NCBI GenBank assembly: GCA_041656935.1
Contig: JBBACQ010000004.1
Location: 8,557-72,556, forward strand
Direction: 5' to 3'
Source of the DNA: Patescibacteria group bacterium
Lineage (GTDB): Bacteria > Patescibacteriota > Patescibacteriia > Patescibacteriales > UBA12465
Length of the DNA: 64,000 nt
A program made the translations under genes and the position numbers. Of the stretch, positions 3,014 to 57,674 are shown piece after piece; the stretch's first letter is position 1, and every line of letters begins with the position of its first letter. The notes below the pieces were generated by a model. That model ran no database searches. It had not been told where the DNA came from and saw nothing but the letters and a program-made list of their open reading frames with translations.

Positions 3014-3466
3014 TTAATCACAAACTCCTTCTACTGCCATATCTAGAATACCTCCTGGAGTAGCACATTTAACACCGGCAGCCAAACCACCAACTTGTCC
3101 ACCTAAACAGAAAGCTAAAGTATAAGAGGCCCCCGAATCGTCTTGAGTATAGGCGTAAGTATTACTAGCCGAAACACAATCCCCATCAGCTGGTGTTGGA
3201 GCTGTTGGCACGATAGCCATGTAGACATTAGTTCCACTGCCAATTTCTCCACCATCAAAAACGGAAGAAGCTGGATATTCTTGCCAGTCATTAAAATAAA
3301 GTTCAAAGGAGGTTTGAAGTTGTCTAACATCAGCTATTCTTTTAGCATCACGAGCATTCTTTCTAGCATTTTGCAAGGCAACTACAGCTAAGGTAGCTAA
3401 GATACCAATAATAGCTATTACTACCAATAACTCAATCAAGGTAAAACCTTTTTTCTTATTAAACAT
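3014..3466 (-). CDS. Type IV (class III signal) pilin/pseudopilin, paralogue 1.
   Basis: N-terminus [24 protein letters not shown]: prepilin cleavage/methylation motif G|FTLIEL with Glu+5. C-terminal Cys pair (GVKCATPGG...CD). Confidence 0.8.
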
Positions 3467-3663: not shown

Positions 3664-4134
3664 TTAATCGCAAGAAGTGGTGGTAGAGATAATCCCTCCC
3701 GGAGTAGCACATTTAACACCAGCCTCTAAAGAGCCGACATTTCCCCCTAAACAAAACTCAATAAAATAACTGCTCCCCGAATCTAATTGCTGATAACGAT
3801 AGGAAATAGTACTGCTACAAATATCACCATCAGCTGGCGAAGGAGCGGTAGGGACCACATACATATAAACGTTAGAACCACTAGCAATCTGAGAACCAGA
3901 AACCAAAAGAGCCGGATAGCCCTGAAGATCATTGAAATAAAGTTCTAAGCCCGTTTGCATCTGACGAACATCATAAATTCTTTTAGCATCACGGGCATTT
4001 CTTCTGGCCCCCTGTAAAGCAACAATCGCCAAAGTAGATAATATTCCAATTATGGCGATAACAACTAACAATTCAATTAGAGTAAAACCAGAAACGCTAG
4101 CTTTTGTTTCTTTGTTCTTCATAAAAGTATTCAT
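3664..4134 (-). CDS. Type IV pilin/pseudopilin, paralogue 2.
   Basis: [44 protein letters not shown]. Conserved N-terminal 60 aa and C-terminal [17 protein letters not shown] block shared with paralogue 1. Divergent middle. Confidence 0.8.
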   Translation of the reverse strand: MNTFMKNKETKASVSGFTLIELLVVIAIIGILSTLAIVALQGARRNARDAKRIYDVRQMQTGLELYFNDLQGYPALLVSGSQIASGSNVYMYVVPTAPSPADGDICSSTISYRYQQLDSGSSYFIEFCLGGNVGSLEAGVKCATPGGIISTTTSCD

Positions 4135-5647: not shown

Positions 5648-7147
5648 TTATTTGGAGAAATATTTACCAAAGTCGTCGTCGCTAATATTATTAATCTGAT
5701 TATTTTTATTTTTTTCCTCATCAGTTTTTATTTTTTTATCTTTCTCGACACCAGAAATCGAATCATCATCTGAAATTTCTATACGACTATTATCTTCTTC
5801 AGCTTCTTCATCTTCTGATCTCTCGCCTGCCTCAATCTCAGAATTTAAATCCTCTTCCAAAAATTCTACATCATTATTATTGTCACCATTATATTCTTCC
5901 CCTTTCTCATCCTCTATGTCATCATTCGAATTATCTTTGTTTTCTATCTCTTCTATATTATTTTCATCTTCGTCATTATTTTCATCTTCTTCAGAATTAT
6001 TTTCTAATTCTTCAAAAACTAGCGGGCTCTCCTCTTCTTTATAAAGATAATCGTTAGGGCTCTTGCTGGCAGACCTATTATGAATTGGGGTTGAAGAAAA
6101 AGGATTAGACAAAGTATTTTCATATTGCTCTTTAGAAACCATTATCTCTCTAGGTTTAGAACCATTGCTCGGACCAACCATCCCTAATTCCTCTAACATA
6201 TCTAAAATACTGGCCGCTCTAGAATAACCAATTCTCAATCTTCTTTGTAAAAAGGAAGTGGATGCCTTACCGCTAGACAAAACAATTTCTTTAGCCTCTT
6301 CTAACAATTCGTCTTCATCTCCCATTAAACCATCTAAACCAACTCCACCGATACCACTAACTTTTTGTCTCTCAGTTATTCCCTCTAAATAATCAGCGGT
6401 TCCATATTTTTCTTTTATATAAGAAACAATAGAGCTGATTTCTTCATCACTAACATAGGCTCCTTGTATTCTTTTTGGTTTAGATAATTCAGCGGTAGTA
6501 AAAAGCATATCTCCTTTACCTAACAATTTTTCAGCTCCCGAAGAATCTAAAATTGTTTTAGAATCTACCGCCGAAGCCACTGAGAAGGCAATTCTGGCTG
6601 GAGTGTTGGCCTTAATCAAACCAGTAATAACATCAACGCTGGGTCTTTGAGTCGCTAATATTAAATGAATACCAACCGCTCTAGACATTTGAGTTAATCT
6701 AATAACACTGCTTTCAATATCCTTAGAAGCCGAAACCATTAAGTCAGCCAACTCATCAATAACAAAAATAATATAAGGTATTTTTTCTTTTCCATTTTGA
6801 TTATAAGTTTGAATATTCTTCTTGCCCGCCCGATTTAACATTTCATAACGACGATCCATTTCGTTTAAACACCATCTTAAAGCATTGATAGTTTTGCTAA
6901 CTTCAGTAATAACTGGAGTTAGAAGATGAGGAATGCCATTATAGGTCGGAAGTTCTACTCTTTTAGGGTCAACTAATATAAAGCGTAAATCATCAGGATT
7001 GTTTTGATATAGTAAACTGACAATAATGGTATTTAAACAAACCGATTTTCCAGAATTAGTCGCTCCGGCCACTAATAAATGAGGCATCTTAGCAATGTCA
7101 TAGACTATATTTTTTCCAGAGACATCTTTTCCTAGGCCGCCATTAAA
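5648..7147 (-). CDS. ftsK: FtsK/SpoIIIE DNA translocase, C-terminal segment. Carries the RecA-like motor and winged-helix gamma domain, then a roughly 130-aa acidic tail. The frame is open upstream of the annotated Met back to 7147.
   Basis: In-frame upstream of MPHLL reads FNGGLGKDVSGKNIVYDIAK MPHLLVAGATNSGKS (Walker A). FVIDELADLM (Walker B). Gamma domain SFLQRRLRIGYSRAASILDMLEELG. Confidence 0.8.
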   Translation of the reverse strand, partial: FNGGLGKDVSGKNIVYDIAKMPHLLVAGATNSGKSVCLNTIIVSLLYQNNPDDLRFILVDPKRVELPTYNGIPHLLTPVITEVSKTINALRWCLNEMDRRYEMLNRAGKKNIQTYNQNGKEKIPYIIFVIDELADLMVSASKDIESSVIRLTQMSRAVGIHLILATQRPSVDVITGLIKANTPARIAFSVASAVDSKTILDSSGAEKLLGKGDMLFTTAELSKPKRIQGAYVSDEEISSIVSYIKEKYGTADYLEGITERQKVSGIGGVGLDGLMGDEDELLEEAKEIVLSSGKASTSFLQRRLRIGYSRAASILDMLEELGMVGPSNGSKPREIMVSKEQYENTLSNPFSSTPIHNRSASKSPNDYLYKEEESPLVFEELENNSEEDENNDEDENNIEEIENKDNSNDDIEDEKGEEYNGDNNNDVEFLEEDLNSEIEAGERSEDEEAEEDNSRIEISDDDSISGVEKDKKIKTDEEKNKNNQINNISDDDFGKYFSK

Positions 7148-8313
7148 TTAGTTTGTCTATTTTTGAAGTCTCTCTCTTCTAAAACTTCTCTTAAACCAAC
7201 AATAGCCTTAGTTTTGTTAGGGACCTCAATTCCAATTAAAGATTTGCCCGGTATTGGAGCTTCAATTCTAATCGGATGCGCCGCTAAAGCCAATGATAAA
7301 TCATTATTCAAGGCTGTTATTTTTGAGACCTTTATACCCTCTGAGGGTTTAAAAGTATATTGAGTTACAGTTGGACCAACATTAACTCCCCCCATTTCTA
7401 CTAAGATACCAAAATTCTCTAAGGTCCTTTGTATTATTAAAATATTTTTATCAATATCTCCACTAGTGGCCTTATTAATTTTATTGCTTAAAAGCTCCAA
7501 CGGTAAATCAATTTTAATTTTTTTAGTTTTCCAATTAACATTTTCTCTTAGGACTTCTTCTTTTTTCCCTAAATCCTCAGTTCTGTTATTAGAAAACCCT
7601 ATTTCTTTTTTAACAAATAAGACATCCTGATCTTCCGCTAAATTATCATCTTTATTTTTTTCATTTTTTATTTCCTCTTCATAATTATTTTGATTTTCAT
7701 CTTCGGTCGAATATGAATCTTCCTCCGAAATATCATTAATCTTAAAGAAATTAGAAATTGATCTAAATATTTGAAATAAAAAACTTTTTGACCCCACCAA
7801 ATGAGACAAAGTAACATTAAATAATAATATAAGCGACAGGGCTAAAATTGCTAAAATCACCACCAATCCTCCCCAAAAGCCCAAAGAGTTTTCTAAAAAA
7901 AGTGATAAGTAAAAACCTAAGTATCCCCCGCCCAGTCCTTCGCTGGCTTTAATTTTGGCAATATCATTTTTATAGAAAAAATGTAGTAATGATGAAATAA
8001 AGATAAAAAATAATGACAAACCAAAATAATTAGACTTCTTAGAAAAAAATTTATTCTTTTTATAAATAGCGATACTCAAAATGATCAATAAAAAAGGAAA
8101 AAGCCACTTACTCCAACCAAAAATTAAGGACAAAATATCATCTAAAAACAAACCAAAGCTACCAGAAAGAGAAAAAAGCGATAATAAACTCAGTAAACCA
8201 AAAACAAAAATCAACAAGGCAATAATGCTTGTTTTTATAATAATTTCCTGATTTCTATCATCTTTTAAATCAGGCTCTTGCTCATTATGGTCTTTTTGAC
8301 GTTTTCTCTTCAT
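7132..8313 (-). CDS. ftsK: FtsK N-terminal segment: polytopic membrane domain, linker and the start of the motor. It ends at a TAG that the downstream segment bypasses by a -1 shift.
   Basis: Multiple TM helices. Ends ..NRQTNLMAA*. The -1 frame continues LGKDVSGK.. without a stop. See findings. Confidence 0.7.
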   Translation of the reverse strand: MKRKRQKDHNEQEPDLKDDRNQEIIIKTSIIALLIFVFGLLSLLSLFSLSGSFGLFLDDILSLIFGWSKWLFPFLLIILSIAIYKKNKFFSKKSNYFGLSLFFIFISSLLHFFYKNDIAKIKASEGLGGGYLGFYLSLFLENSLGFWGGLVVILAILALSLILLFNVTLSHLVGSKSFLFQIFRSISNFFKINDISEEDSYSTEDENQNNYEEEIKNEKNKDDNLAEDQDVLFVKKEIGFSNNRTEDLGKKEEVLRENVNWKTKKIKIDLPLELLSNKINKATSGDIDKNILIIQRTLENFGILVEMGGVNVGPTVTQYTFKPSEGIKVSKITALNNDLSLALAAHPIRIEAPIPGKSLIGIEVPNKTKAIVGLREVLEERDFKNRQTNLMAA

Positions 8314-8364: not shown

Positions 8365-9267
8365 TTAGTTTATTATTTCTTCTATTCGTCTTAAATACTT
8401 GCTATCTATCTGAAACCAATCACCAGAACTTTGAATCGGATAATTATTGCCTTCAAAACGATGAAAATCTGATCCCCCAGTAGCAATTAGATTTAATTTA
8501 ATTGCTAAAAATTGGGCATGCATAATAGCTCCAATAGAATGATGGGGCGACAGAACTTCAATCCCATCAATCCCTAACTCTTTTAATTTTTCCGTCATAT
8601 TCCGACCAAACTTATTAAATTTACCAGGATGGCAAAAAACTAGTTGACCGCCAACTTTCTTTTTAATTTTAATCAGTCTTTCAGCGTTTATATAAGATTC
8701 GCTTAGAATACCAATTTTTTTATTAAAAAATAACTCTCCCAAAATATCCTCTTCTCTCAATGGCAAAATTAATTTACCACTAAAATTTTTTTTGCTCTTC
8801 CTTCGATTTTTAATATTCTTTAAAACTAGATTATAATTATGTTTTTTTTCTATTATCTTATCCCCTAAACGATTAACCGGGATATAATTCTTAAAAAGAG
8901 ATAAAAGATTTTCAATATCAATTTGGTAACCCCTTTTCTTTAATTTAGTTAAAATATTTTTTACCAAGAGAGCTCGACGATAACGAGCTGATTCTAAAAG
9001 ATCTTGCAACTCTTCATTTTTAGCATCAAAATTATACCACAAAAAATTTAATTTTCTTCTCTTGTATTTAACATAAATCTCTAAACCAGGAATAGTTTTA
9101 ATTTTATGCTTTTTAGCTTCCCTTTGAAATTCACCCAAGCCAATTGTGGTATTATGATCAGTTAAGGAGGCAACCCGCACCCCTCTTTTTTGGATAAGCT
9201 TTACTAATTCCTTGGGGGTTAAATAGCCATCAGAAAAATTAGAATGAAGTTGTAAGTCTATCAACAT
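8365..9267 (-). CDS. PHP-domain metal-dependent phosphoesterase.
   Basis: N-terminal IDLQLHSNFSDG..LTDHNT (PHP motifs I/II). Later ..FCHPG.. and GGSDFH. Confidence 0.65.
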   Translation of the reverse strand: MLIDLQLHSNFSDGYLTPKELVKLIQKRGVRVASLTDHNTTIGLGEFQREAKKHKIKTIPGLEIYVKYKRRKLNFLWYNFDAKNEELQDLLESARYRRALLVKNILTKLKKRGYQIDIENLLSLFKNYIPVNRLGDKIIEKKHNYNLVLKNIKNRRKSKKNFSGKLILPLREEDILGELFFNKKIGILSESYINAERLIKIKKKVGGQLVFCHPGKFNKFGRNMTEKLKELGIDGIEVLSPHHSIGAIMHAQFLAIKLNLIATGGSDFHRFEGNNYPIQSSGDWFQIDSKYLRRIEEIIN

Positions 9268-15875: not shown

Positions 15876-18446
15876 TTAATCACAAGGAGTAACTGAAGGA
15901 GCACCGTTACAACAAAAAGGAATAGCGGGAGTGGCCGTACAACCTGGACCGACACTAGGTTTAAAACAATTTTGATAAACATCTTTCACACCTGACCCAA
16001 CTCTAGATTTGTAATCAGCTCCCTCAAAAAACTTTCCATGATTTATGTAAGCGCTGGTCTTATCAGGCTCCCCATCAACAGGGTCAATGTCTAGACCCTT
16101 AGAAGATATCCAATATCCAACTAATTGTCCACTTATTAAATTAATTAAGGAATGAACAACATCTTTAACCCCATTATTTATAGTAACAGCTCCAGTTTTT
16201 AAACTACTGGCCATCATTAACTTATTAAATTCAATAATAATAGGATCGTATAAATCTACTGCTGTAGCTTGAACGGCCGGAGAAATATTGCTGATAATTG
16301 GTGGATCAGTCTCAATTTTATCGCTGATCCAAAAAGACCATCTCAAATTATCCCCCATATTAATATCAGGACTATTTAAATTATAAAAAGTAACGGGGCC
16401 ATAAGAATAGCCGTCGCCATTACCATCGAAAGAATTACCGGCGGAGTCCATTATTCCATCCATCAAAGATAGGTTCGATAATGGATAACGCTTAGCCTGA
16501 CTATTAACACAAATATTATCGGTACAAGTTAAAAAGGGACTTTTGTTAAGACAATTAGCATCATCTCCCTGACAATCAAATAAACTGGCCGATTTTAATT
16601 GAACTTCTAAATTACTATTAGCGGGCAAACAATAAATATCTTCTCCACAACCATTAACTCCGCATTTAACATCTGACTGAAATTCTACCGTTTTATAATT
16701 AGAAGAAATAGAAAAATTTCCAGCTAAATAATTTCCGACACACACCGTTCCGTCACAATTATAAGATTGGCATTCATTGTCTTCAACACAAGCTTGACCA
16801 GAAGATTTAGCCGAAGCAGATTTATTTATAATTTTAATGTAATCATAAATATCATCGCTGTTTCCCGAAACCATTAAAGGATTGACTGCTTCGTTAAAAT
16901 TTATTTGAACAACACTATTCATTGGTTGATCTTTTTTATCATTTATAACGACCTGCTCACTTTTATCTCCCCCACCACTGAAAGGAATAACCGAAATAGC
17001 ACTAGAATTACTAGAAGATAAGGCGATGCTATTACCACTAACTCCACCAACCTTAGCCGTTAAATTAATAATAGTTGTCCCTGTTTGATAAGAAACATTT
17101 ATATTAGGATGGTTAGCTAAAACTACACTAATCTCTTGCGCTAAAACAATAGGGTTAGAATTAACTGAAATATTATAAGCATCGCTCGAACCATTGATAA
17201 AAGTATAGACATAAGATCCAACAGTCAAAAAATCAGCTAAAATTCTCTTTTTAACTACCACCGACCACGAGCTTCCAGCTGTAAAACTAGGATCTAATTC
17301 CATTTTAAAATAATTAACAAAATTAACTTCATTATCGACAATATCAAAAAGACCTAAATTACTACCACCACTAGATAATTGAGCTTTGGTTCTATTTAAA
17401 TCAACCACCACATTAAAATTAAGATAATCTCCATTATAATTAGGATTAATATCAGCCGTAGCCGTAGCGGTTCCAATAATATTACTAATGGAAACAATGC
17501 TGGCTGGTTGAAAATAATTAGGCTCGCCTAAAACACCCAAAGAGGCTGTAGCAAAAAGTAGCTCTGAAATTAAATTCTTTTCGTCCTTAGTATCATCAGC
17601 TTGTGGGAAAACACTCCCTACTTCTGGTGGAGTTAAATCTAAAAGATTACTAACCTCAAAGCCCCATAGGAAGAAATTGGCCGAACAATTAGAAAAAATA
17701 CTAGCTGATTCGTCTAGCTTTAAAACATCACTGGAAAAATAAACTAAATATTTAGAAAAACCATTTTCGTTGCCCAATAAATTATCTGGATAGAAAACAA
17801 ATGTTTTATTATCAGCCGTTGAAAAACTAAAAGAAATTGGTTCAGAACAAGCTCTAGTAATAATATCAAATTTATCTTCTTCGCATAATACAACACTAGA
17901 ATTAGAAATAGAAGTAGAGGCGACTTCCTCCTTAAAGGTAATCATAATCATGGTATTTCTAGGAACATTCTCTTGATCAGGCTCAGGATAAACACTTTCA
18001 ACGCTACAATTTCCAATGGCTCCTAGACCAGTCTGAAAAAAAGCATTTCTAGAAGTATCTACTCCTTGATTGGAATAGTTATCGGGAAACAAACTTCTAA
18101 AAATAAAAGTGACGATACCCCAAGAAATTAATATTATTGCTAGACCAATAATAGCACTTTTCAATAAGCGCTTAGCTTTGTCAACTTTCTCTTCATTGCC
18201 CTCAGAGGTCATCCACAAAAATCCCCCATAAATATTTAAACTAACAGCAATAATTGCTAATAGACCTAAAAAGATATTAATAATTTTAACTACAATTGTT
18301 CGAGGATCGGTCGCCTTTAAAACTATCTCGCTATCAACCTCAGATATTCCGACAATATCTCCCGCCAAAACTATTCGAAGACCGACTAAAAAAAGACCTA
18401 AACAAAAGAAAGAAAAGAAAAGAAGTATTTTTCTATTTTTTATCAT
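15876..18446 (-). CDS. Large (856 aa) membrane-anchored, Cys-rich, predicted extracellular protein. Function unknown.
   Basis: Three N-terminal hydrophobic helices, the last two forming a hairpin (..GGFLWMTSEGNEEKVDKAKRLL..). Long Ser/Asn/Thr-rich body. C-terminal Cys-rich modules (CVEDNECQSYNCDGTVC, CGVNGCGEDIYC, CQGDDANCLNKSPFLTCTDNIC). Confidence 0.55.
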   Translation of the reverse strand: MIKNRKILLFFSFFCLGLFLVGLRIVLAGDIVGISEVDSEIVLKATDPRTIVVKIINIFLGLLAIIAVSLNIYGGFLWMTSEGNEEKVDKAKRLLKSAIIGLAIILISWGIVTFIFRSLFPDNYSNQGVDTSRNAFFQTGLGAIGNCSVESVYPEPDQENVPRNTMIMITFKEEVASTSISNSSVVLCEEDKFDIITRACSEPISFSFSTADNKTFVFYPDNLLGNENGFSKYLVYFSSDVLKLDESASIFSNCSANFFLWGFEVSNLLDLTPPEVGSVFPQADDTKDEKNLISELLFATASLGVLGEPNYFQPASIVSISNIIGTATATADINPNYNGDYLNFNVVVDLNRTKAQLSSGGSNLGLFDIVDNEVNFVNYFKMELDPSFTAGSSWSVVVKKRILADFLTVGSYVYTFINGSSDAYNISVNSNPIVLAQEISVVLANHPNINVSYQTGTTIINLTAKVGGVSGNSIALSSSNSSAISVIPFSGGGDKSEQVVINDKKDQPMNSVVQINFNEAVNPLMVSGNSDDIYDYIKIINKSASAKSSGQACVEDNECQSYNCDGTVCVGNYLAGNFSISSNYKTVEFQSDVKCGVNGCGEDIYCLPANSNLEVQLKSASLFDCQGDDANCLNKSPFLTCTDNICVNSQAKRYPLSNLSLMDGIMDSAGNSFDGNGDGYSYGPVTFYNLNSPDINMGDNLRWSFWISDKIETDPPIISNISPAVQATAVDLYDPIIIEFNKLMMASSLKTGAVTINNGVKDVVHSLINLISGQLVGYWISSKGLDIDPVDGEPDKTSAYINHGKFFEGADYKSRVGSGVKDVYQNCFKPSVGPGCTATPAIPFCCNGAPSVTPCD

Positions 18447-37252: not shown

Positions 37253-40200
37253 TTACACATAAGTAACGCTCGCTACCATATCATTTTCGTCTTTAAAGCG
37301 CATAATTCGGACTCCTTGAGTATCACGACCCAATTCATTAACTGTTTTATAAGGCAAACGAATAACCTGACCTTTATCAGAGATAATTATTAAATCCTTG
37401 CCCTCCATGGTATCTTTGTTTATAACAAAAGCATTACTAATTTTACCAGTCTTAGTGGTCACTTTAGCTGTTCGAATACCACTACCACCTCGACCCTGAA
37501 CCTTATACAAATCCAAATCCGTCCTCTTACCATAACCCTGATCCATAATGGTCAAAATTTGATAATTCCGTTTTACTCCTTTCTCAACCTTGATAATTCC
37601 CATTCCAACAACAATATCATCTTTCTTTAATTTAATACCTCGAACACCGGAAGCATTCCGGCCCATATCACGCACCTCTTTTTCAGAAAATCTTATCGCT
37701 TGGCCATTAGCAGTTATTAAACTAATATGATCAAGCCCGGAAGTTGGTTTTGACCAAATCAATTTATCATCATTCTTTATTTTTATCGCTATTAAACCAC
37801 TGCGACGAACATTAGAGAAAGAATCAATTTTAACTTTTTTAACCAAGCCTTTTTCTGTAGCGAAAAATAAATAATTATAACCGGCAATTTTATCTAGCGG
37901 TAAGATAGAAGTAATTTTTTCTCCACCAATTAACTGCAAGAAATTAACAATCGGAGTTCCTTTAGCCGTACGAGAGGCTTGCGGTATTTCATGAGCCTTT
38001 AATTGGAATACTCGCCCCTTAGTAGTAAAGAATAAAATATCATTATGGGTTTGAGTAATAAACATAAAATCAACCGAATCTTCTTCTTTGGTTGTTAAAC
38101 CGATAACACCCTTACCCCCACGAGCTTGAACCTTAAAAGTATCAGGATCTAATCGCTTAATATACCCATCCCGAGTCATCATAATCATAGTTTCTTCATT
38201 GGGTATTAAATCTTCAATATTAAAATTCTTAACACCATGAGCTACTACTTGAGTTCGACGCTCGTCCCCAAATTTTTCTCCCAATTCAGCAATCTCAGTT
38301 TTAATAATATTTCTAATTTTAGTTTTAGAAGCTAAAATTGCCTCTAACTCTTTAATCAATTTTAATTTTTCTTTTAATTCATCTTCAATTTTAATACGTT
38401 CCAAATTAGCCAAACTCTGCAATCTCATTTCCAAAATAGCCACCGCCTGTCTTTCGGACAACTTAAATCTCTTTATTAAACTTTCCTTAGCTACGTCTTT
38501 ATCTTTTGAAGCTTTAATAACTTTAATAACTTCGTCAATATTTTTTAAAGCAATCATTAAACCTTCCAAAATATGAGCTCTGTCCTTGGCCTTATTTAAT
38601 TCAAATTCAGTCCGACGATAAATTACATCTTGACGATGTTTAATATATTCCTCTAAAACCATTTTTAAAGTTAATACTTTAGGTTGAATTCCATCAATTA
38701 AGGCTAAAATATTAACATGGAAGGTGCTTTGTAAAGCAGTATTTTTGTACAAGCTATTTAATATTTTTTTCGGATAAGAATCTTTTTTCAAATCTAAAAC
38801 AATGCGAACGCCCTCTTTATCAGACTCGTCTCGTAAACCTCTAACTCCATCTAACTTTTTATCTTTTACTAAATCAGCAATTTTTTCTACCAAAGTCGCC
38901 TTATTAACCTGATAAGGAAGCTCGGTAATAATTATTTGGAAATTTCCATTTTTCTCCTCTTTAATATCAGCCCTTCCTCGACAAACAATTCCACCCTTAC
39001 CGGTAGCATAGGCATTCAAAATATCTTTTTTATCATAAATAATTCCACCGGTTGGGAAATCAGGCCCTTTGACATGCTCCATTAAATCCTCCACCGTAGA
39101 GTCTGGTTGGTCAATTAATAAATTTATTGCTCCTAATAATTCTTTTAGATTATGAGGCGGAATATTAGTGGACATACCGACCGCAATTCCCATCCCTCCG
39201 TTTAGGAGTAAATTAGGTAATTTAGCCGGTAAAACTTGCGGTTCTTTTTGTGAGCCATCATAATTAGGAATAAAATTAACGGTATCTTTATCAATGTCAA
39301 ATAATAATTCTTCTGTAATACTAGCTAATTTTGCTTCAGTATTATGATTTATAAAACCATTAGCTACAAAAGAGTGACAAGTGCTCCCTACTTTAATAGA
39401 ATAAACATTTTCTTTTTCGACCTGAGTTTCAACTAGCTTCACCTGATTAAAAAAGTAATGATTTTCTAATAAGTAATCGACCATTTTCAAGTCAGAAGAA
39501 TTTAAAATGCTCTTTAATTTACAATAATTTTTTCTTAAGCTATTATAACGATCAAAATTATTTTTAACTATAAAACTATTTTTATAATTTAATCTTAAAT
39601 AATTGTTTAAAAATGGAATAAAATCATTATGGCTTAAACGAGTAGTATTAATCTCCGATATCTTAGATAAAATCTCTCTTTTACGTTGAGAAAAAAAGTT
39701 AATATTTTTTTGAAAATTTACAATACTATCAACTCCCGAGATTATTAATTTATAACAAGCATTTCTCTTATCCTGATAAGGCGAAGTGGTAACTACACCA
39801 AAATTTAATAAAACTGTTTTCAGCTGATTGATAAGTTTTTTGCTTTTAGAATTATAGTTTAATTCAATTGATTTTCCGCCGTGTCTTTGGTCTTTTTTAA
39901 AAGAAACCGAACCATCACCCTCAAATAAACCTCGTAAAAAAGAACTTATTACTGCTCGGCTAGACATTAAAACTGAAAAAGGAATTTCTTTTTTATCAGA
40001 TAATTTAGTAGCCAAGCCAATTTCTTGTAAAAATTCCACAATATTTTTTTCATAAATACAAAGCTCCGGACAATTACCCTTCAGAACTCTTTCATATAAT
40101 TTAACTCCCGGAAATAACTGAGAAATTATATTTCGAACCTTGCCATAAAAATCTTTATCTGAATTACAGAAGAAAAATTTGTTTTGGTGGAAAGACCCTT

Positions 40201-41212
40201 CTGATACTAAAGCTCCTAAAAGAAAAGCTAGGTCTTTATTCATTTTTTTAGGTAGGGTAATTTTTTTACTCTTAGGGCTTTCTAAAGGAAAAAACTTTTC
40301 TAAACTTAAATCATTTTTAGAAAATAGCGAAGCCGAACGGCTTAAGGGCAAGAAATCATTTTTATTGATATTTTCTAAAGCTTTCCAATAAAAATAGGGC
40401 TGACCAAATTCATTTAAACCCCATAATAATAACGGATGATTAAATGAACCCCGAATTTCATAGCCCTGCTCAGTGGTTATTTTTATAATTGAATGCTTAC
40501 CAGAATCGAAAAATTTAGTAGCTGGCTTAACCTTCCCTTTATAATTTAAAATATTTATTTTTATTTTATCTCCACTTTTAGGGGCAAGATTTTTTATTTC
40601 CACTATCCCTTTATCGGTTAAAAGTAGAGTATCACCAGAAACACAATATCTCATCGCGGCGGCATTATCACCATCCATCGAACCAAAGTTTCCCTGACCA
40701 CGAACCAAAGGATAACGCATTGAGAAATCCTGAGCCATACGAACCATAGAATCATAAACAGCACTATCACCATGCGGATGGTATTTACCTAAAACTTCTC
40801 CCACCACAGTAGCTGACTTACGAAATTTAGCGCTAGCCTTTAAACCAATATCCCACATAGCATACAAAATACGACGATGAACTGGTTTCATACCATCACG
40901 GACGTCAGGCAAGGCGCGAGAAACAATAACGCTCATGGCGTAATCTAAATAAGAAGAACTCATCTCTTCGCTAATAGACTGATTTTGTACTAAACCGTAT
41001 TCGGTTTGACGACGACCATTACCATTAACTGCTGAATCAACCACGGCTTCATCACCATTAAGATCAGCCTCAATAACTACCGCATCTTCTTTAATAACGG
41101 GAGCTTTTTTTTCAATTATATCTTTCTTAACAACCTTTTTGTTTTTAGAAGTCTCTGCGCTGGAAGAAACTTTTTTGGGTGTTTTATCTTTTTTGTCTTT
41201 TTCTTTTTTCAT
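37253..41212 (-). CDS. gyrA: DNA gyrase subunit A interrupted by an in-frame intein. Also carries a roughly 70-aa Lys-rich N-terminal extension.
   Basis: [32 protein letters not shown]. Active-site AAMRY followed by an intein. After the intein, TEAKL... resumes the GyrA sequence. C-terminal beta-pinwheel repeats. Confidence 0.9.
39341..40645 (-). mobile_element. Intein (435 aa) with a LAGLIDADG homing-endonuclease domain, inserted immediately after the catalytic Tyr of GyrA.
   Basis: Begins Cys (AAMRY|CVSGDTLLL) and ends ..VANGFINHN|T. LAGLIDADG-like blocks [14 protein letters not shown] and [15 protein letters not shown]. Coordinates verified codon by codon. Confidence 0.8.
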
Positions 41213-51565: not shown

Positions 51566-51593
51566 TTTACATTTTTAAAAAATATGTTATAAT
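51566..51593 (+). promoter_or_regulatory. Candidate promoter for the plus-strand gene string 51675-56806.
   Basis: TTTACA, 16 nt, TATAAT. Confidence 0.4.
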
Positions 51594-51674: not shown

Positions 51675-52667
51675 ATGCTATCATATCGTGCTATTTTAAA
51701 ACAAGCTCTAAGAATCTCTTGGAAAAATAAATTATTGTGGTTTTTCGGCTTTTTTGCCTCTTTAATAAGTTTTACCGCTGAATTTAAAATCATTACTCAA
51801 TCTTTAAATCGAAATATGGGGGTTAGCTCTATTAATAACATTAAAACCTTCATAAATACTGGTATTTTTTCTAAAAATGCTTGGACAAATATTGTAGAAT
51901 TAATTAAAAACGATCCGAAATCAATTCTTTTCCTTATTTTTGTTTTACTAATTATTATGGCTGTTGTTGCCTTTTTCGCTTGGTTATCAACTGTTTCTCA
52001 AATTTCAATTATCGATTCAGTTAATAAAATAATGAAAGGAAAGATTGAAAAATTAACCATAAAGAAAAGTATTCAAACAGGTAATAAAAAATTCTGGCCA
52101 GTATTCCTATTAAATGTCTTTATTTCTTTAGTTGTCTGGATTTCTCATTTAATCATCGGGACTCTCTTATTATTAGCCATTGTTAAAAATCAAGCTCTAA
52201 CCGTTTTATTATATGGTTTAATTTTTATAATTTTTATACCCTTATCTCTATTTATATCTTTTGTCATAAAATATGCTATTGCTTATTCAATTATTGAAGG
52301 AAAAAAAATGGGGCAAGCTATAAAACAAGGCTGGAAGCTTTTCCTTAAAAACTGGTTAATTAGCGTAGAGATGTCAATAATATTATTTTTTGTTAATATT
52401 ATTACTTTAATATTATTATCAATAATATCGTTTATTGGGTTCTTCTTATTCTTCGGTTTAGCCCTATCAACCGTCTTTTTAATCCCATCAAGTATTTTCT
52501 TCTGGATAATAATAATCCTAGGAGGACTTTTCCTATTAGCCGTGATGGTTTTAGGTGGAGCTTTATTAAATGTTTTCCAAATTACTTCTTGGACTGATCT
52601 TTTTGTCCAATTACGAGGAGACCAAAATATTGGTAAATTAGAGAAGATATTCCAAACTCAAAAATAA
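51675..52667 (+). CDS. Hypothetical polytopic membrane protein.
   Basis: At least 6 predicted TM helices. No PilC/GspF motifs. Confidence 0.5.
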   Translation: MLSYRAILKQALRISWKNKLLWFFGFFASLISFTAEFKIITQSLNRNMGVSSINNIKTFINTGIFSKNAWTNIVELIKNDPKSILFLIFVLLIIMAVVAFFAWLSTVSQISIIDSVNKIMKGKIEKLTIKKSIQTGNKKFWPVFLLNVFISLVVWISHLIIGTLLLLAIVKNQALTVLLYGLIFIIFIPLSLFISFVIKYAIAYSIIEGKKMGQAIKQGWKLFLKNWLISVEMSIILFFVNIITLILLSIISFIGFFLFFGLALSTVFLIPSSIFFWIIIILGGLFLLAVMVLGGALLNVFQITSWTDLFVQLRGDQNIGKLEKIFQTQK

Positions 52668-52687: not shown

Positions 52688-55600
52688 ATGAGTGATTTTG
52701 ACTCAATTTCTAGTTTGTTGAAAGAAAATTCAGCCAGTTCTAATGATAATAATGCTACCAAGAAATTATCGAATAAACAACAAGAAATAAAAAATAAGGA
52801 AATAGAGAAACAAACACAGGCCAGAGCGCAAACTTTAGGCCTGTCTTATATTAATTTATTTGGTTTTCCTATCAGCCCCGAAGCCCTCACTTTAATAGAC
52901 GAAGAAATTTCTATAAAAAATGAAGTTCTTTGTTTTTTTTATGATGGGGAAAATGTCAGAATCGGAACCACTGAACCCAAAAACCCCGAAATTGAAAAAA
53001 TCATAAATAATATAAATGAAAAATATCATACTAAAAGCAATCTCTATTTGATATCAAAAAACAGTTTAGAACATGGGATAAAGATTTATCAAACAATTCC
53101 TAAAAATGAAATCACTAGTAAAGGTGTCCAGATTAAAGAGGAAGATTTAGAAAAATTTAAAAACGAAATAAACGATTTTAAAAGTTTAGATAAAAAAATA
53201 AACGAAGTTAGTATTTCTGACGTAGTTACTCTGCTCTTGGCGACGGCTCTAAAATCGGATTCCAGTGATATCCATATTGAATCGGAGAGTGAAGGAATTA
53301 TAGTAAGACTAAGAATTGATGGAGTTTTGCAAGAGGCCGCCACCATAAAAAAAGAGAGTTGGAGAAAAATAATTTCTCGCATGAAAATATTAGCGGGAGT
53401 AAAAATAAATATTGACGATAAACCTCAAGATGGTCGTTATTCAGTCTTTTTAAAAGACAGTCGGATTGATATTCGATCTTCTTTTCTACCAACCGCTTAT
53501 GGAGAAAGTGTGGTTATGCGATTATTAAAATCTAGCTCGGTTAGTTTGTCCTTTGACGATTTAGGTTTAAGAAAGCATAATTATCAAATATTGAAAAAGG
53601 AAATAGAAAAACCTAATGGGCTAGTTTTAACCACTGGACCAACTGGTAGTGGAAAAACAACCACTTTATACGCTATTCTAAACCAATTAAATGATTCTGA
53701 GACCAAAATTATAACCTTAGAAGACCCAATTGAATATCAATTAACTGGCATTAGCCAAAGCCAAATAGAACCAAAAAAGGGCTATACCTTTTCTTCCGGT
53801 TTAAGATCTGTTTTACGCCAAGATCCGGATATCGTTATGGTAGGAGAAATTAGAGACATCGAAACAGCCGAAATAGCCATTCAATCTAGCTTAACTGGAC
53901 ATTTGGTTTTATCAACCTTGCACACTAATGACGCTTCGGGAGTTATTCCTCGTTTAATAGACATGGGAATAAAATCTTATTTATTAGTTCCCTCTATCAA
54001 TGCTGTGGTTGGACAAAGATTAGTTAGAAAACTTTGTCCAGAATGTAAAGAAATTCATAAATTAGATGATGAGGAAGAAAATTTAATAAAAAAAATCTTA
54101 GCAGTTATATCTCCTAAAGCTGAAGTAGAAGTTCCCAGAAATATTCCGACCGTTTTTAAAGTTGGCCCCGGATGTCCAGCTTGTAATAAAATTGGCTATA
54201 AGGGCCGAACTGGTATTTACGAAATATTCACCATGAATGATAAAATAAAACAATTAACTTCTGACAATGCCCCTTCTTTCAGAATATTGCAACAAGCCAT
54301 AGAAAGCGGAATGATTACAATGCTCCAAGATGGAATATTAAAAGTTCTAGAGGGGCAAACTAGTTTAGAAGAGATTTATCGAGTAGTCGGAAATTTTGAT
54401 TATATTGACGAATTATATGACATTGCCATTTCCGAAACTATTAGTCGAGGAATAAAAATAGAAACCAGTGAGATGGCCAAGGCTAAAGAAATATTAAAAG
54501 ATTATTCTCAGATAAATACAAATATTGAAAAAACTCCGAGTAAGGAAATAATATCTTTGCTCTTGGCTTTAGCTATTACAACTAATACTGGAGATTTACA
54601 TATTGAACCAACTGAAAAAAATGTTAAAATTCGTTTTAGAATTGACGGTGTTTTACACGATATCACCGAAATACCTAAAAATACTTTTCTACCCTTACTG
54701 GGAGAAATAAAAATACTAATTGGGTTAGAAACAAATGTTAAAAAATCATCTATTGATGGCCGATTTGCTATATCATTACCAGACAGAAAAATAGATTGCC
54801 GAGTTTCAATTATTTCGGGTGGCTACGGAGAAACTATTGTTATCAGATTATTGACTGGAGTGGAGGAAACTTTAGATTTAGAAAATATCGGTCTAGCTGA
54901 ATATAGTTTAGCTATTTTAAAAAATTCCATTAAAAAAACCAGAGGAATTATTTTAACTACTGGACCAACTGGTAGTGGAAAAACAACCACCTTATACAGT
55001 ATCTTAAAAAATATTAATACCCCTGATGTTAAAATAATAACTATAGAAGATCCGATTGAATATCAAATGGCTGGAATAATCCAGACTCAAACCAATCAGG
55101 AAGGTGGCTATACTTTTGCCTCAGCCATGCGATCAATATTAAGACAGAATCCTAATATCATGATGATTGGAGAAATCCGAGATACTGAAACAGCTAAAAT
55201 ATCATTAGAGGCCTCCTTAACTGGACATTTAGTTTTATCAACCGTTCATGCTAACAGTGCCTCTAGCGCCATATCTCGTTTTATTGGTTTGGGAGTTGAA
55301 AAATCAACCTTAGCTAACGCTTTAGAATGTTCGATTGGTCAAAGATTGGTTAGAAAAATTTGTCCTTCCTGTGAAAAAGAAGAGGTTTTAATTACCCCTC
55401 AACAACGGGAAGAAATTGAAAAAATATTAGGAAAAATAAACAATAATAAAGTTACTATCCCTAAAGAATTGAAATTTTATCGCGGAAAGGGTTGTCCTAA
55501 TTGTGGTAATATTGGCTATAAGGGCCGACTTGGTATTTATGAAATAATGGATATAAGTCCAACTATTAAAAAAGCTATTATTGATAAAGAGGTTAATGAT

Positions 55601-55717
55601 CAAGAAATTGAAAAATTAGCCGTTGAAAATGGAATGGTAACTATGTTACAAGATGGGATCTTAAAAGCTCTAGCTGGGCTAACAACTATTGATGAGGTCT
55701 TTAAAGTCGCTAAGTAA
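52688..55717 (+). CDS. pilB: Type IV pilus/T2SS assembly ATPase (PilB/GspE family) containing two complete tandem ATPase modules in one 1009-aa chain.
   Basis: N-terminal GSPII_E_N-like domain. Module 1 has LTTGPTGSGKTTTLYAIL, ITLEDPIEY, VGEIRD, LTGHLVLSTLH and CPEC...CPAC. Module 2 has LTTGPTGSGKTTTLYSIL, ITIEDPIEY, IGEIRD, LTGHLVLSTVH and CPSC...CPNC. Confidence 0.85.
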   Translation: MSDFDSISSLLKENSASSNDNNATKKLSNKQQEIKNKEIEKQTQARAQTLGLSYINLFGFPISPEALTLIDEEISIKNEVLCFFYDGENVRIGTTEPKNPEIEKIINNINEKYHTKSNLYLISKNSLEHGIKIYQTIPKNEITSKGVQIKEEDLEKFKNEINDFKSLDKKINEVSISDVVTLLLATALKSDSSDIHIESESEGIIVRLRIDGVLQEAATIKKESWRKIISRMKILAGVKINIDDKPQDGRYSVFLKDSRIDIRSSFLPTAYGESVVMRLLKSSSVSLSFDDLGLRKHNYQILKKEIEKPNGLVLTTGPTGSGKTTTLYAILNQLNDSETKIITLEDPIEYQLTGISQSQIEPKKGYTFSSGLRSVLRQDPDIVMVGEIRDIETAEIAIQSSLTGHLVLSTLHTNDASGVIPRLIDMGIKSYLLVPSINAVVGQRLVRKLCPECKEIHKLDDEEENLIKKILAVISPKAEVEVPRNIPTVFKVGPGCPACNKIGYKGRTGIYEIFTMNDKIKQLTSDNAPSFRILQQAIESGMITMLQDGILKVLEGQTSLEEIYRVVGNFDYIDELYDIAISETISRGIKIETSEMAKAKEILKDYSQINTNIEKTPSKEIISLLLALAITTNTGDLHIEPTEKNVKIRFRIDGVLHDITEIPKNTFLPLLGEIKILIGLETNVKKSSIDGRFAISLPDRKIDCRVSIISGGYGETIVIRLLTGVEETLDLENIGLAEYSLAILKNSIKKTRGIILTTGPTGSGKTTTLYSILKNINTPDVKIITIEDPIEYQMAGIIQTQTNQEGGYTFASAMRSILRQNPNIMMIGEIRDTETAKISLEASLTGHLVLSTVHANSASSAISRFIGLGVEKSTLANALECSIGQRLVRKICPSCEKEEVLITPQQREEIEKILGKINNNKVTIPKELKFYRGKGCPNCGNIGYKGRLGIYEIMDISPTIKKAIIDKEVNDQEIEKLAVENGMVTMLQDGILKALAGLTTIDEVFKVAK

Positions 55718-55737: not shown

Positions 55738-56313
55738 ATGCTAGACAAAAAATTTTTAAACTCCCTTAAGAAAAATTATGCTAAAAGTAATATTGAAAGA
55801 AGACAAATAATTTCTTTAGCCAATATTGTTTTAAATAATTCTAAAAAAACTATTTTTGCCATTCACCGAAATGAATTAGATTTGGCCGAAAAAAATTTAG
55901 AAGATAACGAAAAAATAATTAAAAAAATAAATCGAGATTTTGGTGAGAACCGAGCAACCAAGGAAGGGGCTTTTATGGCCTCCCTAGAAGAATATGTTGA
56001 AGCTAGACTATTTTTTGATTTTGTAAAAACTGGTAAAATTGGGAAAGTTAAAGACTTAAACGTTCCGCTAGAATCATATATCGGAGGAATCTGTGATTTA
56101 AGTGGAGAATTAATTAGACGAGCCGTTAACGAAACTATTGAAAAAAACTTTTCTGAAATTAAAAAAATAAAAAAGATAATCAATGAAATTTTAAATGAAT
56201 TGATAGATTTTGATATTACTGGCTATCTAAGAACTAAATATGACCAAGCTCGAGGAAATTTGAAAAAAATAGAACAAATGGACTACGAAATAAGCTTAAA
56301 AAATTTAAAATAA
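55738..56313 (+). CDS. Translin-family-like protein (tentative).
   Basis: SLEEYVEARLFFDF...YIGGICDLSGELIRRAVN resembles the translin signature E.Y.EA..F...Y.GG..DL.GEL.R.A. Confidence 0.45.
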   Translation: MLDKKFLNSLKKNYAKSNIERRQIISLANIVLNNSKKTIFAIHRNELDLAEKNLEDNEKIIKKINRDFGENRATKEGAFMASLEEYVEARLFFDFVKTGKIGKVKDLNVPLESYIGGICDLSGELIRRAVNETIEKNFSEIKKIKKIINEILNELIDFDITGYLRTKYDQARGNLKKIEQMDYEISLKNLK

Positions 56314-56314
56314 A

Positions 56315-56806
56315 ATGAAAGTAGCTATTATTTCAGATATTCATGATAATTTAGCCAATCTCGGCTTTTTTTTAAATTTAACGAAGAAAGAAGAAATTGA
56401 AAAAATAATTTGTTTAGGAGATATTACTAACCAAGAAACCTTAAAAATACTAGCTCAGGGTTTTACAGGAGAAATTTTATTGGTTTATGGAAACATGGAA
56501 ATATATTCTGAGAACGATATTAAAGAATATCGAAATATTAATTATCTAGGAAGATTTGGCACCTCTCAATTAGGCAATTTTGTCGTAGGACTATGTCACG
56601 AACCGGGATTTATTAAAAACCTTTTTGAAAAAAATGAAGATTTGAATTTTATCTTTTACGGCCACACCCACAAACCTTGGCTTTCTATGAAAAACAAGGC
56701 CGTCCTTATAAATCCAGGGACACTCGGCGGAGTTTTTCAAAAAGCTAGTTATGCTATTTGGGACGATCAAGATGGTAAAATTAAATTAAAATTAATTCAT
56801 AATTAA
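56315..56806 (+). CDS. Calcineurin-like metallophosphoesterase (YfcE-like).
   Basis: KVAIISDIHDN, GD..N, GNME, GHTHKP motifs. Confidence 0.8.
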   Translation: MKVAIISDIHDNLANLGFFLNLTKKEEIEKIICLGDITNQETLKILAQGFTGEILLVYGNMEIYSENDIKEYRNINYLGRFGTSQLGNFVVGLCHEPGFIKNLFEKNEDLNFIFYGHTHKPWLSMKNKAVLINPGTLGGVFQKASYAIWDDQDGKIKLKLIHN

Positions 56807-56861: not shown

Positions 56862-57674
56862 CTACAACATTTTTTTAATCTTAGGAATAATTTTACCGAC
56901 TTCTTTCTCGGTAATTTTTATTATATCCAAAGAAACCTCTTTTTTAAAATAAGCTTTAAGCCTAGATAAATCAGAATATTTAGAAGTATCGGGGTTAATA
57001 ATGAAATCAGAGCTCTTCATTGAATCTTGGCTTAAATTATACAAAGCTATTTCAGCTGACCGAGTGATAATTTTAGCTAAATTTAAATCCCTATTAACAA
57101 TATTATATTTATTATATAAATTAACTGAAATTACTACATCCGCTCCCATTTTTTTAACGATATCATCAGGAACAGCATTAGAAAGAGCTCCATCAACTAA
57201 AATTTTATCCCCTAACTTAAAAGGTTTAAAAGTAAAAGGGACCGATGAGCTAGCTCTAACTGCTTGGGCTAAATCTCCTTTGGAAAAAATATGTTCTTCT
57301 CCCGAAACCAAATCAGTAGCCACCGCCCTAAAAGGAATAGCTAAATCCTCTAAGCGAGCCCCAGCAAAAATTTTAAAAAGCTCCCGCTCTAAAGTATGTC
57401 CACCCAATAAACCATATCTGAAATTAACATCACGCAAATGATGAACTTTGTGTTTTTGGAGTTCGAAAAAATCTTTTTCTAATTTTTCAACATCTTTAAA
57501 CAAAGCATAATGTGCCCCAATAACTGCCCCAACGCTACTGCCAGCAATGAAATCTATCGGAATATTATTCTTAACTAAGGCCTTAATAACGGCAATGTGA
57601 GCTGAGCCTCTAAAACCGCCACTACCTAAAGCTAAACCAACTTTTATTCTTTTTTTATCCTTGAAAAAAAACAT
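56862..57674 (-). CDS. Patatin-like phospholipase.
   Basis: GLALGSGGFRG (Gly-rich). GSSVGA (GxSxG). DGA(L) catalytic Asp motif. Confidence 0.8.
   Translation of the reverse strand: MFFFKDKKRIKVGLALGSGGFRGSAHIAVIKALVKNNIPIDFIAGSSVGAVIGAHYALFKDVEKLEKDFFELQKHKVHHLRDVNFRYGLLGGHTLERELFKIFAGARLEDLAIPFRAVATDLVSGEEHIFSKGDLAQAVRASSSVPFTFKPFKLGDKILVDGALSNAVPDDIVKKMGADVVISVNLYNKYNIVNRDLNLAKIITRSAEIALYNLSQDSMKSSDFIINPDTSKYSDLSRLKAYFKKEVSLDIIKITEKEVGKIIPKIKKML

Follow-up and report, generated by a model that had tools for sequence, protein, structure and literature searches.

A tandem PilB/GspE-type ATPase with two motor modules in one chain, conserved in Patescibacteria

The stretch of DNA analyzed here (hereafter the window; 64,000 nt, positions 8,557 to 72,556 of contig JBBACQ010000004.1) belongs to the Patescibacteria group bacterium assembly GCA_041656935.1 and carries, at 52688..55717 on the + strand, the gene of a tandem ATPase in which two complete PilB/GspE-type motor modules are joined in a single polypeptide. 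The gene is real and has been conserved by vertical descent among Falkowbacteria-like Patescibacteria. With somewhat more confidence than doubt, we regard its product as a natural covalent PilB/GspE-type dimer, duplicated and fused, that likely works as a three-chain, six-module ring driving type IV filament assembly; the oligomeric state, the ring geometry and the pilus substrate are the parts of this reading that we infer. Nothing relevant was found in the literature on tandem, fused or duplicated PilB, GspE or T2SSE, and neither the main evolutionary survey of type IV filament systems nor a 2024 review of PilB mentions a tandem architecture. The original prediction, made from the letters of the sequence, had not known of such an architecture as described, and this held, with no paper found in the searchable literature, no solved structure and no two-module chain found among the structures of the PDB. 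Public databases already list double-ATPase proteins, which go by generic names there ('GspE/PulE family protein', 'type IV pilus assembly protein PilB'). Since ATPase modules have often been duplicated in tandem elsewhere among ATPase families, the protein does not found a new category.

Architecture, spread and origin of the tandem ATPase

The open reading frame (ORF) starts with ATG and runs in one uninterrupted frame for 1009 aa plus stop (a product of 113 kDa), exactly at the position and length first proposed. Its layout is N1 domain (N1D)–[N2 domain (N2D)+ATPase]–linker–[N2D+ATPase]. Pfam agreed with the predicted GSPII_E_N-like domain and two full modules, matching T2SSE (PF00437) in two stretches (aa 175–565 and about 617–1009; 759 bits in total against a cut-off of 24.9) and a single N-terminal MshEN/T2SSE_N-type domain (PF05157; aa 50–129, 24.7 bits against a cut-off of 23.1). 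All parts lie on the + strand. The N1D (aa 46–140, 52823..53107), a T2SSE_N/MshEN-type domain that occurs only once, was modeled by AlphaFold2 (AF2) with a predicted local distance difference test (pLDDT) value of about 80–88. It is joined to the first N2D by linker 1 (aa 141–176, 53108..53215), which consists of a flexible hinge (pLDDT <50 at aa 138–148) and helices and is homologous to part of linker 2. Module 1 comprises an N2D (aa 177–290, 53216..53557) with invariant R207, R209, R250, R263 and R278, and an ATPase core, or C-terminal domain (CTD; aa 291–567, 53558..54388). The inter-module linker, linker 2 (aa 568–618, 54389..54541), has the conserved motif G-N-F-D-Y-[IV]-D-E-L-Y-D-[IV]-x-I-S-Q-T-I-G-R-G-I-K and a hinge in the AF2 model (pLDDT <50 at aa 581–587). 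It leads to the N2D of module 2 (aa 619–732, 54542..54883), with invariant R649, R651, R692, R705 and R720, and to the second CTD (aa 733–1009, 54884..55714).

The motif set of the T2SSE family (Walker A, Asp box, atypical Walker B and His box) was present in both modules, and a motif scan bore out the motifs listed in the original prediction, tetra-Cys cluster included. Walker A (GPTGSGKT, with K323 and K765) was located at aa 317 in module 1 and aa 759 in module 2, the Asp box (IIT[LI]EDPIE) at aa 341 and 783, Walker B (GEIRD, with E387 and E829) at aa 383 and 825, and the His box (TGHL, with H405/H412 and H847/H854) at aa 403 and 845. The tetra-Cys clusters consisted of CxxC pairs at aa 450 and 496 in module 1 (Cys450/453/496/499) and at aa 892 and 936 in module 2 (Cys892/895/936/939). 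One N1D serves two modules, a departure from the PilB/GspE extension subfamily, which has one N1D per module. Alignment of module 1 (aa 149–567) with module 2 (aa 591–1009), which the prediction had proposed, gave 44% amino acid identity over 420 columns (E 8e-128). Codon-aligned DNA identity was 59.5% overall (56, 72, and 50% at the three codon positions), with a longest exact run of 32 nt. The clear divergence that had been noted by eye was thus real, while the estimate of about two-thirds DNA identity was slightly high, since 68–70% was reached in conserved cores only. The similarity between the modules is far above chance, and their divergence is too large for a collapsed or duplicated assembly repeat.

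The spread of the fusion was determined by searching 5.8 billion proteins. The best 120 clusters, which came from NCBI, JGI, ENA, and Logan assemblies, were all 1003–1018 aa in length (plus two fragments) and covered 100% of the query at 62–73% identity; a second search added 50 further two-module clusters, giving at least 170 protein clusters at 90% identity. An exhaustive HMMER scan of 1.84 billion representatives at 50% identity returned about 14 clusters with an end-to-end two-module match, down to 36–46% identity (P0121–P0133 and P0139). A query confined to the junction, from the end of CTD1 across the linker into N2D2, recovered the complete junction in at least 80 species-representative genomes. 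One of these was a closed chromosome of Falkowbacteria (CP066698.1, 977 kb), and contigs reached 911 kb (ENA ERZ21878242 contig_1); JGI Ga0645779_00060 (901 kb) carries the double as well. With one exception (L070), every locus clear of contig ends held one uninterrupted two-module ORF of 1003–1025 aa. Named carriers were Falkowbacteria, Parcubacteria (e.g., KKU82539.1, GW2011_GWA2_47_8), Paceibacterota and Buchananbacteria, and the protein itself has an identical database entry, named 'GspE/PulE family protein [Patescibacteria group bacterium]'. The window itself had a G+C content of 31.6% and a housekeeping gene content typical of a streamlined genome. Many of the locus records (L007, L008, L011, L013, and others) are titled 'uncultured Gammaproteobacteria bacterium', and one 'Candidatus Nanoarchaeia archaeon'; these titles are evidently generic or wrong and unfit for taxonomy.

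These data uphold the proposal of an old tandem fusion, and the search for the same fusion in related genomes, which had been suggested as a check, was positive throughout the species counted above. That the gene is an artefact of assembly or annotation, either two neighboring paralogous genes misjoined or a misassembled repeat, is hardly conceivable. The ORF is continuous in at least 80 independently assembled species genomes, the closed chromosome and contigs of 0.5–0.9 Mb among them, and the linker is itself conserved, with invariant residues. Misassembly or a collapsed repeat was ruled out by the low DNA identity between the modules, which share no exact run of more than 32 nt, together with the recurrence of the ORF across species. 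Nothing was found in favor of an artefact, and L070 (7758-10782) was the only related locus at which the double ATPase gene was broken (pieces of 239 and 625 aa), being either a pseudogene or an assembly error.

The first half of the protein scored 483 bits with PilB, 491 with GspE and 184 with PilT, and the second half 397, 430, and 167 bits, respectively. The AF2 modules superposed on the PilB structures 5TSH, 5OIU, and 5IT5 with template modeling (TM) scores of 0.88–0.92, and on PilT with about 0.75. By sequence profile and predicted fold, each module is of the extension type (PilB/GspE), not PilT-like; the possibility of module 2 being a PilT-like retraction unit was excluded by its PilB/GspE scores and its retained Cys cluster. 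The whole protein exceeded the NCBIfam cut-offs of TIGR02538 (PilB; 867.9 vs. 675.65) and TIGR02533 (GspE; 908.8 vs. 630.25), but only by summing the modules. On these profile scores the tandem ATPase can safely be termed PilB/GspE-type, without certified equivalog status for either.

Among characterized proteins, PilB (Geobacter metallireducens 5TSH/5TSG; Thermus thermophilus PilB/PilF core 5IT5/5OIU) resembles the tandem ATPase in its N1D–N2D–CTD organization, with 40–44% identity and with the TM scores given above for each predicted module. It differs in that the tandem ATPase has two N2D+CTD modules per chain, one N1D, and no pilC or pilMNO alongside. In T. thermophilus PilF, it is the N-terminal domains that are multiplied and not the motor module. 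GspE/PulE (Vibrio EpsE/GspE; 1P9R, 4KSR, and 4KSS) supplied the top NCBIfam model and, among PDB entries, the closest matches by sequence (E about 1e-104). It has the same motifs and Zn-binding Cys cluster, but is single-module, and the halves of the tandem ATPase lie below the TIGR02533 cut-off. A classical type II secretion system (T2SS) is not expected because the host lineage is devoid of outer membrane and secretin (PMC6744442). The nearest single-module proteins were the P0138-type singles (579–597 aa, about 35 clusters from Patescibacteria, Parcubacteria and Falkowbacteria), which are about 50% identical to the N-terminal half (57% within the module) and end exactly where module 1 ends, with neither linker nor second module. 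Old duplications of ATPase modules are also found in KaiC, type II AAA+ proteins (p97, NSF, and ClpB) and F1 (alpha3beta3), P-loop lineages unrelated to the PilT/VirB11-like family, where they led to stacked rings or an alternating pseudo-hexamer, often with unequal copies.

Conservation was examined in an alignment of 54 full-length homologues. K323/K765, E387/E829, H405 and H412/H847 and H854, the N2D arginines, the pore-loop acidic residues (D390/E392 and D832/E834) and all eight Cys were invariant in both modules. Deep relatives retain the motifs with rare exceptions (GPTGSGTT in module 1 of P0139; no Cys cluster in module 2 of P0131). Nei–Gojobori estimates for 25 independent close pairs gave a nonsynonymous divergence (dN) of 0.02–0.17 in both modules against a synonymous divergence (dS) of at least 0.7, and in the least saturated pair the ratio of the two (omega) was 0.026 for module 1 and 0.032 for module 2. 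Both modules are under strong purifying selection. As first claimed, both are active-looking in their catalytic residues, which are invariant in the homologues and nearly so in the deep relatives, and selection on both modules agrees with that claim.

The two modules are nevertheless constrained differently, module 1 somewhat more so (column identity 0.81–0.84 vs. 0.75–0.76), with 94 positions conserved in module 1 only and 39 in module 2 only. At 25 aligned positions, residues that are at least 90% conserved within each module differ between the modules, and 10 of these 25 fall in the N2D. This is the pattern expected for non-equivalent roles, and such fixed divergence indicates that the two modules may have come to perform two of them. 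A more extreme form of inequality, in which one module is a regulatory or structural pseudo-ATPase that binds ATP without hydrolysis while the other drives the motor, would be consistent with the weaker constraint on module 2 and with the decay seen elsewhere (the Walker A lysine lost from module 1 of P0139 and the Cys cluster from module 2 of P0131), and has a precedent in the non-catalytic alpha subunits of F1-ATPase. We consider it quite improbable, as no catalytic residue of either module varies among the window protein and its 54 close homologues, and omega is equally low in both modules.

The junction between the modules bears on the origin of the double. Linker residues G568, Y572, L576, Y577, S582, T584, and G588 were invariant in the 54 homologues, and hhalign found aa 570–622 to be homologous to aa 127–180, i.e., to the last N1D helix and the N1D–N2D linker (probability 91%, E 1.2e-6). 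The same junction was present in the deep relatives P0121–P0125, P0127–P0129, and P0131–P0133. Judged by this profile homology, the inter-module linker is a remnant of the last N1D helix and the N1D–N2D linker of a second copy. The double thus arose by tandem duplication of an entire pilB-like gene with in-frame fusion of the copies, after which the second copy lost its N1 domain except for the last helix and linker. In bootstrapped neighbor-joining trees of the modules, modules 1 and 2 of the query were never sisters (0% bootstrap), and its module 2 grouped with module 2 of P0122 and P0123 (71%); the sequences point to one old origin for the main double-ATPase family.

Sister modules within one protein were obtained for P0130 (100% bootstrap), P0126 (93%) and P0139 (88%), and repeated independent duplications were considered on that account. 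For P0130 (L095:3226-6213) this explanation was weakened by mosaic identity and by the PolA–TsaE synteny that its locus shares with the main family. Its modules were 69–74% identical, and one 30-codon window reached 99% nucleotide identity (97% at third positions) while third positions were saturated elsewhere. The pattern indicates that the likeness of the P0130 modules would stem, at least in part, from intragenic gene conversion or concerted evolution; tracts of gene conversion were also looked for between the modules of the window gene, and none were seen. An independent origin is probable only for P0139 (L093:8001-11144; GCA_964384625.1, CAYLNH010000035.1), which has a different phylum-type context, N-terminus, and linker. 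This 1047-aa protein, one cluster on record, is encoded on a non-CPR (candidate phyla radiation) contig of 62% G+C, directly downstream of genes for an extracytoplasmic function (ECF) sigma factor and an anti-sigma factor. In place of the N1D, it has two soluble repeats like T2SSF (the cytoplasmic domain of PilC/GspF) at aa about 1–225, with no transmembrane segment, followed by two T2SSE modules with a Pro-rich linker between them; the Walker A lysine of module 1 is lost (GPTGSGTT).

Proteins of 711–821 aa (P0173, P0195, and others) were examined as decayed doubles or intermediates and rejected, their tails being unrelated coiled-coil or low-complexity sequence with no second module. The single-module PilB-like clade to which they belong (P0173, P0195, P0182, P0212, P0191, P0266, and P0194) has C-terminal tails of 140–260 aa without a Pfam match, in which a motif of roughly L-[IV]-[DE]-Y-L-x-x-L-E-x-E-Q-x-x-x-P-x-[IV]-G-[IV]-A-x-[KQ]-[IL] is repeated twice. 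Another PilB-like ATPase, P0141 (774 aa), has a C-terminal fusion that consists of a double zinc ribbon and a receiver domain of response-regulator type.

Gene neighborhood and pilus context

The double ATPase gene of the window and of close relatives belongs to a co-directional four-gene unit, together with genes for a membrane protein, a Translin-like protein and a metallophosphoesterase. The conserved upstream partner (51675..52667, +) encodes a 330-aa polytopic membrane protein and was found directly upstream on the same strand in 74 of 75 related loci, with a median gap of 16 nt. Downstream, a Translin-family protein (191 aa; 55738..56313, +; PF01997, E 4.5e-20) follows after 20 nt; 73 of 76 related loci had a Translin-like gene here, at a median gap of 18 nt. 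The unit ends with a metallophosphoesterase gene (Metallophos_2 in Pfam, 163 aa; 56315..56806, +), which occurred at a conserved offset in 68 related loci. A consensus scan located a promoter-like site (TTTACA-16 nt-TG-TATAAT, 11/12 matches; 51566..51593, +) with a near-consensus extended -10 element ahead of the membrane-protein gene, where the intergenic region is divergent, as the putative start of a four-gene operon, and a terminator-like hairpin behind the unit at 56893..56914 (consensus scan with both strands scored).

The 330-aa membrane protein had no Pfam match at E<=1e-3, and its similarity to DUF7544/GPDPase_memb was sub-threshold (DUF7544 17.4 bits against a cut-off of 27). Its family comprises only about 205 proteins, all of Patescibacteria type. 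A role as a PilC analogue was considered and rejected, as it had no T2SSF signal and resembled DUF7544/GPDPase_memb only below threshold. A full-length homologue (28–31% identity, E 1e-23 to 1e-30) lies directly upstream of the P0138-type singles, whose neighborhood is otherwise different, with FtsH upstream and TsaE downstream. Gene order and homology thus present the polytopic membrane protein and the PilB-type ATPase as a conserved gene pair, and the P0138-type singles, because the same membrane-protein gene lies directly upstream, as positional orthologues of the double. Singles and doubles were found on different contigs (those of the singles up to 455 kb in length), and it is suggestive that they belong to different genomes.

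Deep relatives of the double did not have the membrane partner; a DHH phosphoesterase gene was upstream, and TsaE, PolA, RuvB, and RuvC were nearby. The DHH-family phosphoesterase was directly upstream of the double in two lineages (L087:8710-9879 and L088:8823-9974), the two proteins being 35% identical. Further nucleic-acid enzymes were encoded beside divergent doubles (L089:13015-13497 and L094:11639-12613), with RuvC directly downstream in one lineage. Such neighbors may reflect no more than conserved housekeeping synteny, or they may point to a connection with the uptake or processing of DNA.

CPR bacteria have neither PilQ nor an outer membrane, and genes for PilB, PilT, PilC, PilM/N/O, PilD, and pilins are widespread among them (PMC6744442). 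Beside a tRNA cluster, the window contains a pair of neighboring type IV pilin-like genes (3014-3466 and 3664-4134, both on the - strand) whose products have class III signal peptides. A type IV filament role would be the default expectation for the tandem ATPase, because CPR widely encode the parts of type IV pili and the window has these two pilin genes. No pilus-machinery genes were found near the pilin-like pair, nor were T2SSF, PilM/N/O, PilT, or PilD genes found in the 64-kb window. A further gene on the - strand (15876-18446) encodes a protein of 856 aa in which an N-terminal T4SS_pilin domain (PF18895) is combined with an Ig-like domain (Big_5). It may be a surface or conjugation-type pilin fusion like those reported for the type IV secretion system of Patescibacteria.

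Proposed assembly and alternative readings

The PilB hexamer is built from packing units of N2D(n) and CTD(n+1), with ATP bound between units (PMC5424180). For the homohexamers of PilB, GspE, and PilT, both the catalytic symmetry (C2, C3, or C6) and the stoichiometry of the platform (dimer or trimer) are debated (PMC5424180, PMC6858323, PMC10790770). In the PulE6:PulF3 model, each platform subunit is internally duplicated, and its Cyto1 and Cyto2 domains contact a pair of neighboring ATPase subunits at their N2Ds (PMC10790770). By analogy, the two modules of one tandem chain, with their hinged linker of ~50 residues, would most simply fill two adjacent positions of a ring, and three chains would close one ring, (m1-m2)x3, equivalent to the PilB hexamer. 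Packing units would be alternately intra- and inter-chain, and the ring would have three N1 domains instead of six. The alternating modules could be matched to the two homologous cytoplasmic domains in each subunit of a trimeric platform (the 6:3 model); alternatively, they could work with the conserved upstream membrane protein. Such a ring would power type IV pilin polymerization, for an adhesion, twitching or DNA-uptake pilus, in a bacterium that has no outer membrane. The functional trimer of dimers of PulE6:PulF3 (PMC10790770) is what an (m1-m2)x3 ring would fix covalently, and the permanent m1-m2 pair would let each N2D specialize. The systems differ in that PulE6:PulF3 has six identical, separate ATPase chains, and in that no platform gene lies near the tandem ATPase, the link to a platform being drawn by analogy. 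In P0139, a single chain combines two platform-like domains with two ATPase modules, which independently fits a 1:1 pairing.

Several observations weigh against a three-chain pilus motor. On the structural side, the AF2 model of the full-length monomer had a pLDDT of 79 and a predicted TM (pTM) score of 0.45, and the pTM of 0.62 for a CTD1–linker–N2D2 construct is explicable by the CTD alone. The published PilB mechanism reportedly has C2 symmetry with opposite subunits equivalent, and an (AB)3 ring, in which opposite subunits would be of different type, appears at odds with it. Taken alone, each half of the protein remains under the NCBIfam equivalog cut-offs (483 and 397 bits against 675.65 for TIGR02538; 491 and 430 against 630.25 for TIGR02533). 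As to genomic context, the constant neighbor is the DUF7544-like membrane protein and no platform protein. No second T2SSE gene was found within +-10 kb of the double in about 90 loci, and no T2SSF-like ORF over the same range with a hidden Markov model (HMM) built from the T2SSF repeats of P0139. Pilus-machinery genes were not found in the Pfam-annotated related loci, where the double was never beside pilC, pilM/N/O, or pilT, while the pilus genes of CPR often co-localize (PMC6744442). A canonical PilB may be encoded elsewhere in the same genomes, with the double serving another role.

From this context follows a rival reading with a minor share of our confidence, that the DUF7544-like protein and the PilB-type ATPase form a separate membrane machine that recruited a PilB-like motor, e.g., one that imports or exports nucleic acid or some other substrate, and that the pilus uses another PilB. 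The gene pair is kept in nearly all loci at close spacing (74/75, gap about 16 nt), and is kept also at the single-module orthologues, where all other neighbors are different; nucleic-acid enzymes recur beside the double (Translin and metallophosphoesterase, and DHH, PolA, RuvB, and RuvC in deep relatives), no pilus-machinery genes were nearby in any lineage examined, and the halves score below the PilB and GspE equivalog cut-offs. Yet type IVa pilus genes are typically dispersed over several loci (PMC6668835), which makes a missing operon context weak evidence, and in streamlined genomes tight spacing and synteny can persist without a functional link. The deep doubles have the DHH gene upstream instead of the membrane partner, and the pore-loop acidic residues D390/E392 and D832/E834, which face the platform in published models, are conserved in both modules.

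A different geometry, which the original prediction had named beside a trimer of pseudo-dimers, is proposed by the stacked double ring, in which six chains would form a ring of module 1 stacked on a ring of module 2, with 12 ATP sites. Tandem ATPase modules in one chain usually give stacked rings elsewhere (KaiC, p97, and ClpB), the ~50-residue linker with its hinge at aa 581–587 would be long enough, there would be six N1 domains per assembly as in canonical PilB, and both modules retain all residues for homotypic N2D–CTD packing. We rate this arrangement as rather unlikely. To our knowledge, no PilT/VirB11-like ATPase forms more than one ring; the platform is bound at the N2D face and platform domains enter the pore, which leaves a second ring without obvious access to a membrane partner. 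A pair of positions within a single ring would suit the 25 fixed differences and the unequal constraint no less well, and the two platform-like domains and two modules of P0139 fit a side-by-side arrangement. In decreasing order of likelihood, the alternatives to the three-chain pilus motor are the stacked double ring, a non-pilus role with the membrane partner and a partly regulatory module. A more speculative combination, which we hold to be doubtful, is that the gene pair constitutes a self-contained, hitherto unrecognized membrane machine of Patescibacteria without a PilC-type platform, whose (m1-m2)x3 motor would have fixed alternating roles and a C3 rather than a C2 cycle, with a possible role in nucleic-acid uptake or processing because of the Translin, phosphoesterase, DHH, and Ruv neighbors.

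The debate on symmetry and stoichiometry gives the tandem ATPase its main interest. A natural covalent dimer would force an alternating order of two distinguishable modules, so that the 25 fixed m1/m2 differences may show which surfaces are not equivalent while the motor works. Such a natural linked-subunit motor would allow per-module mutants (E387Q vs. E829Q), which otherwise need protein engineering. The type IV filament machinery of Patescibacteria, central to episymbiosis and DNA scavenging, would include an unreported motor architecture in many species, and the conserved membrane partner is a concrete lead to what the tandem motor drives.

Other features of the window

Two further genes of the window had unusual structures. 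The GyrA gene (37253-41212, - strand; 1319 aa) contained an intein with a LAGLIDADG homing-endonuclease domain (Intein_splicing, aa 198–624), and the GyrA of a Falkowbacteria relative (L001) was intein-free, with 851 aa. FtsK was encoded by two consecutive ORFs on the - strand (5648-7087 and 7132-8313), one piece comprising the N-terminal 4TM (four transmembrane segments) and alpha parts (393 aa) and the other the motor and gamma parts (479 aa), with an FtsK_SpoIIIE match from model position 38. This split could represent a frameshift, a real split or a missed insertion.

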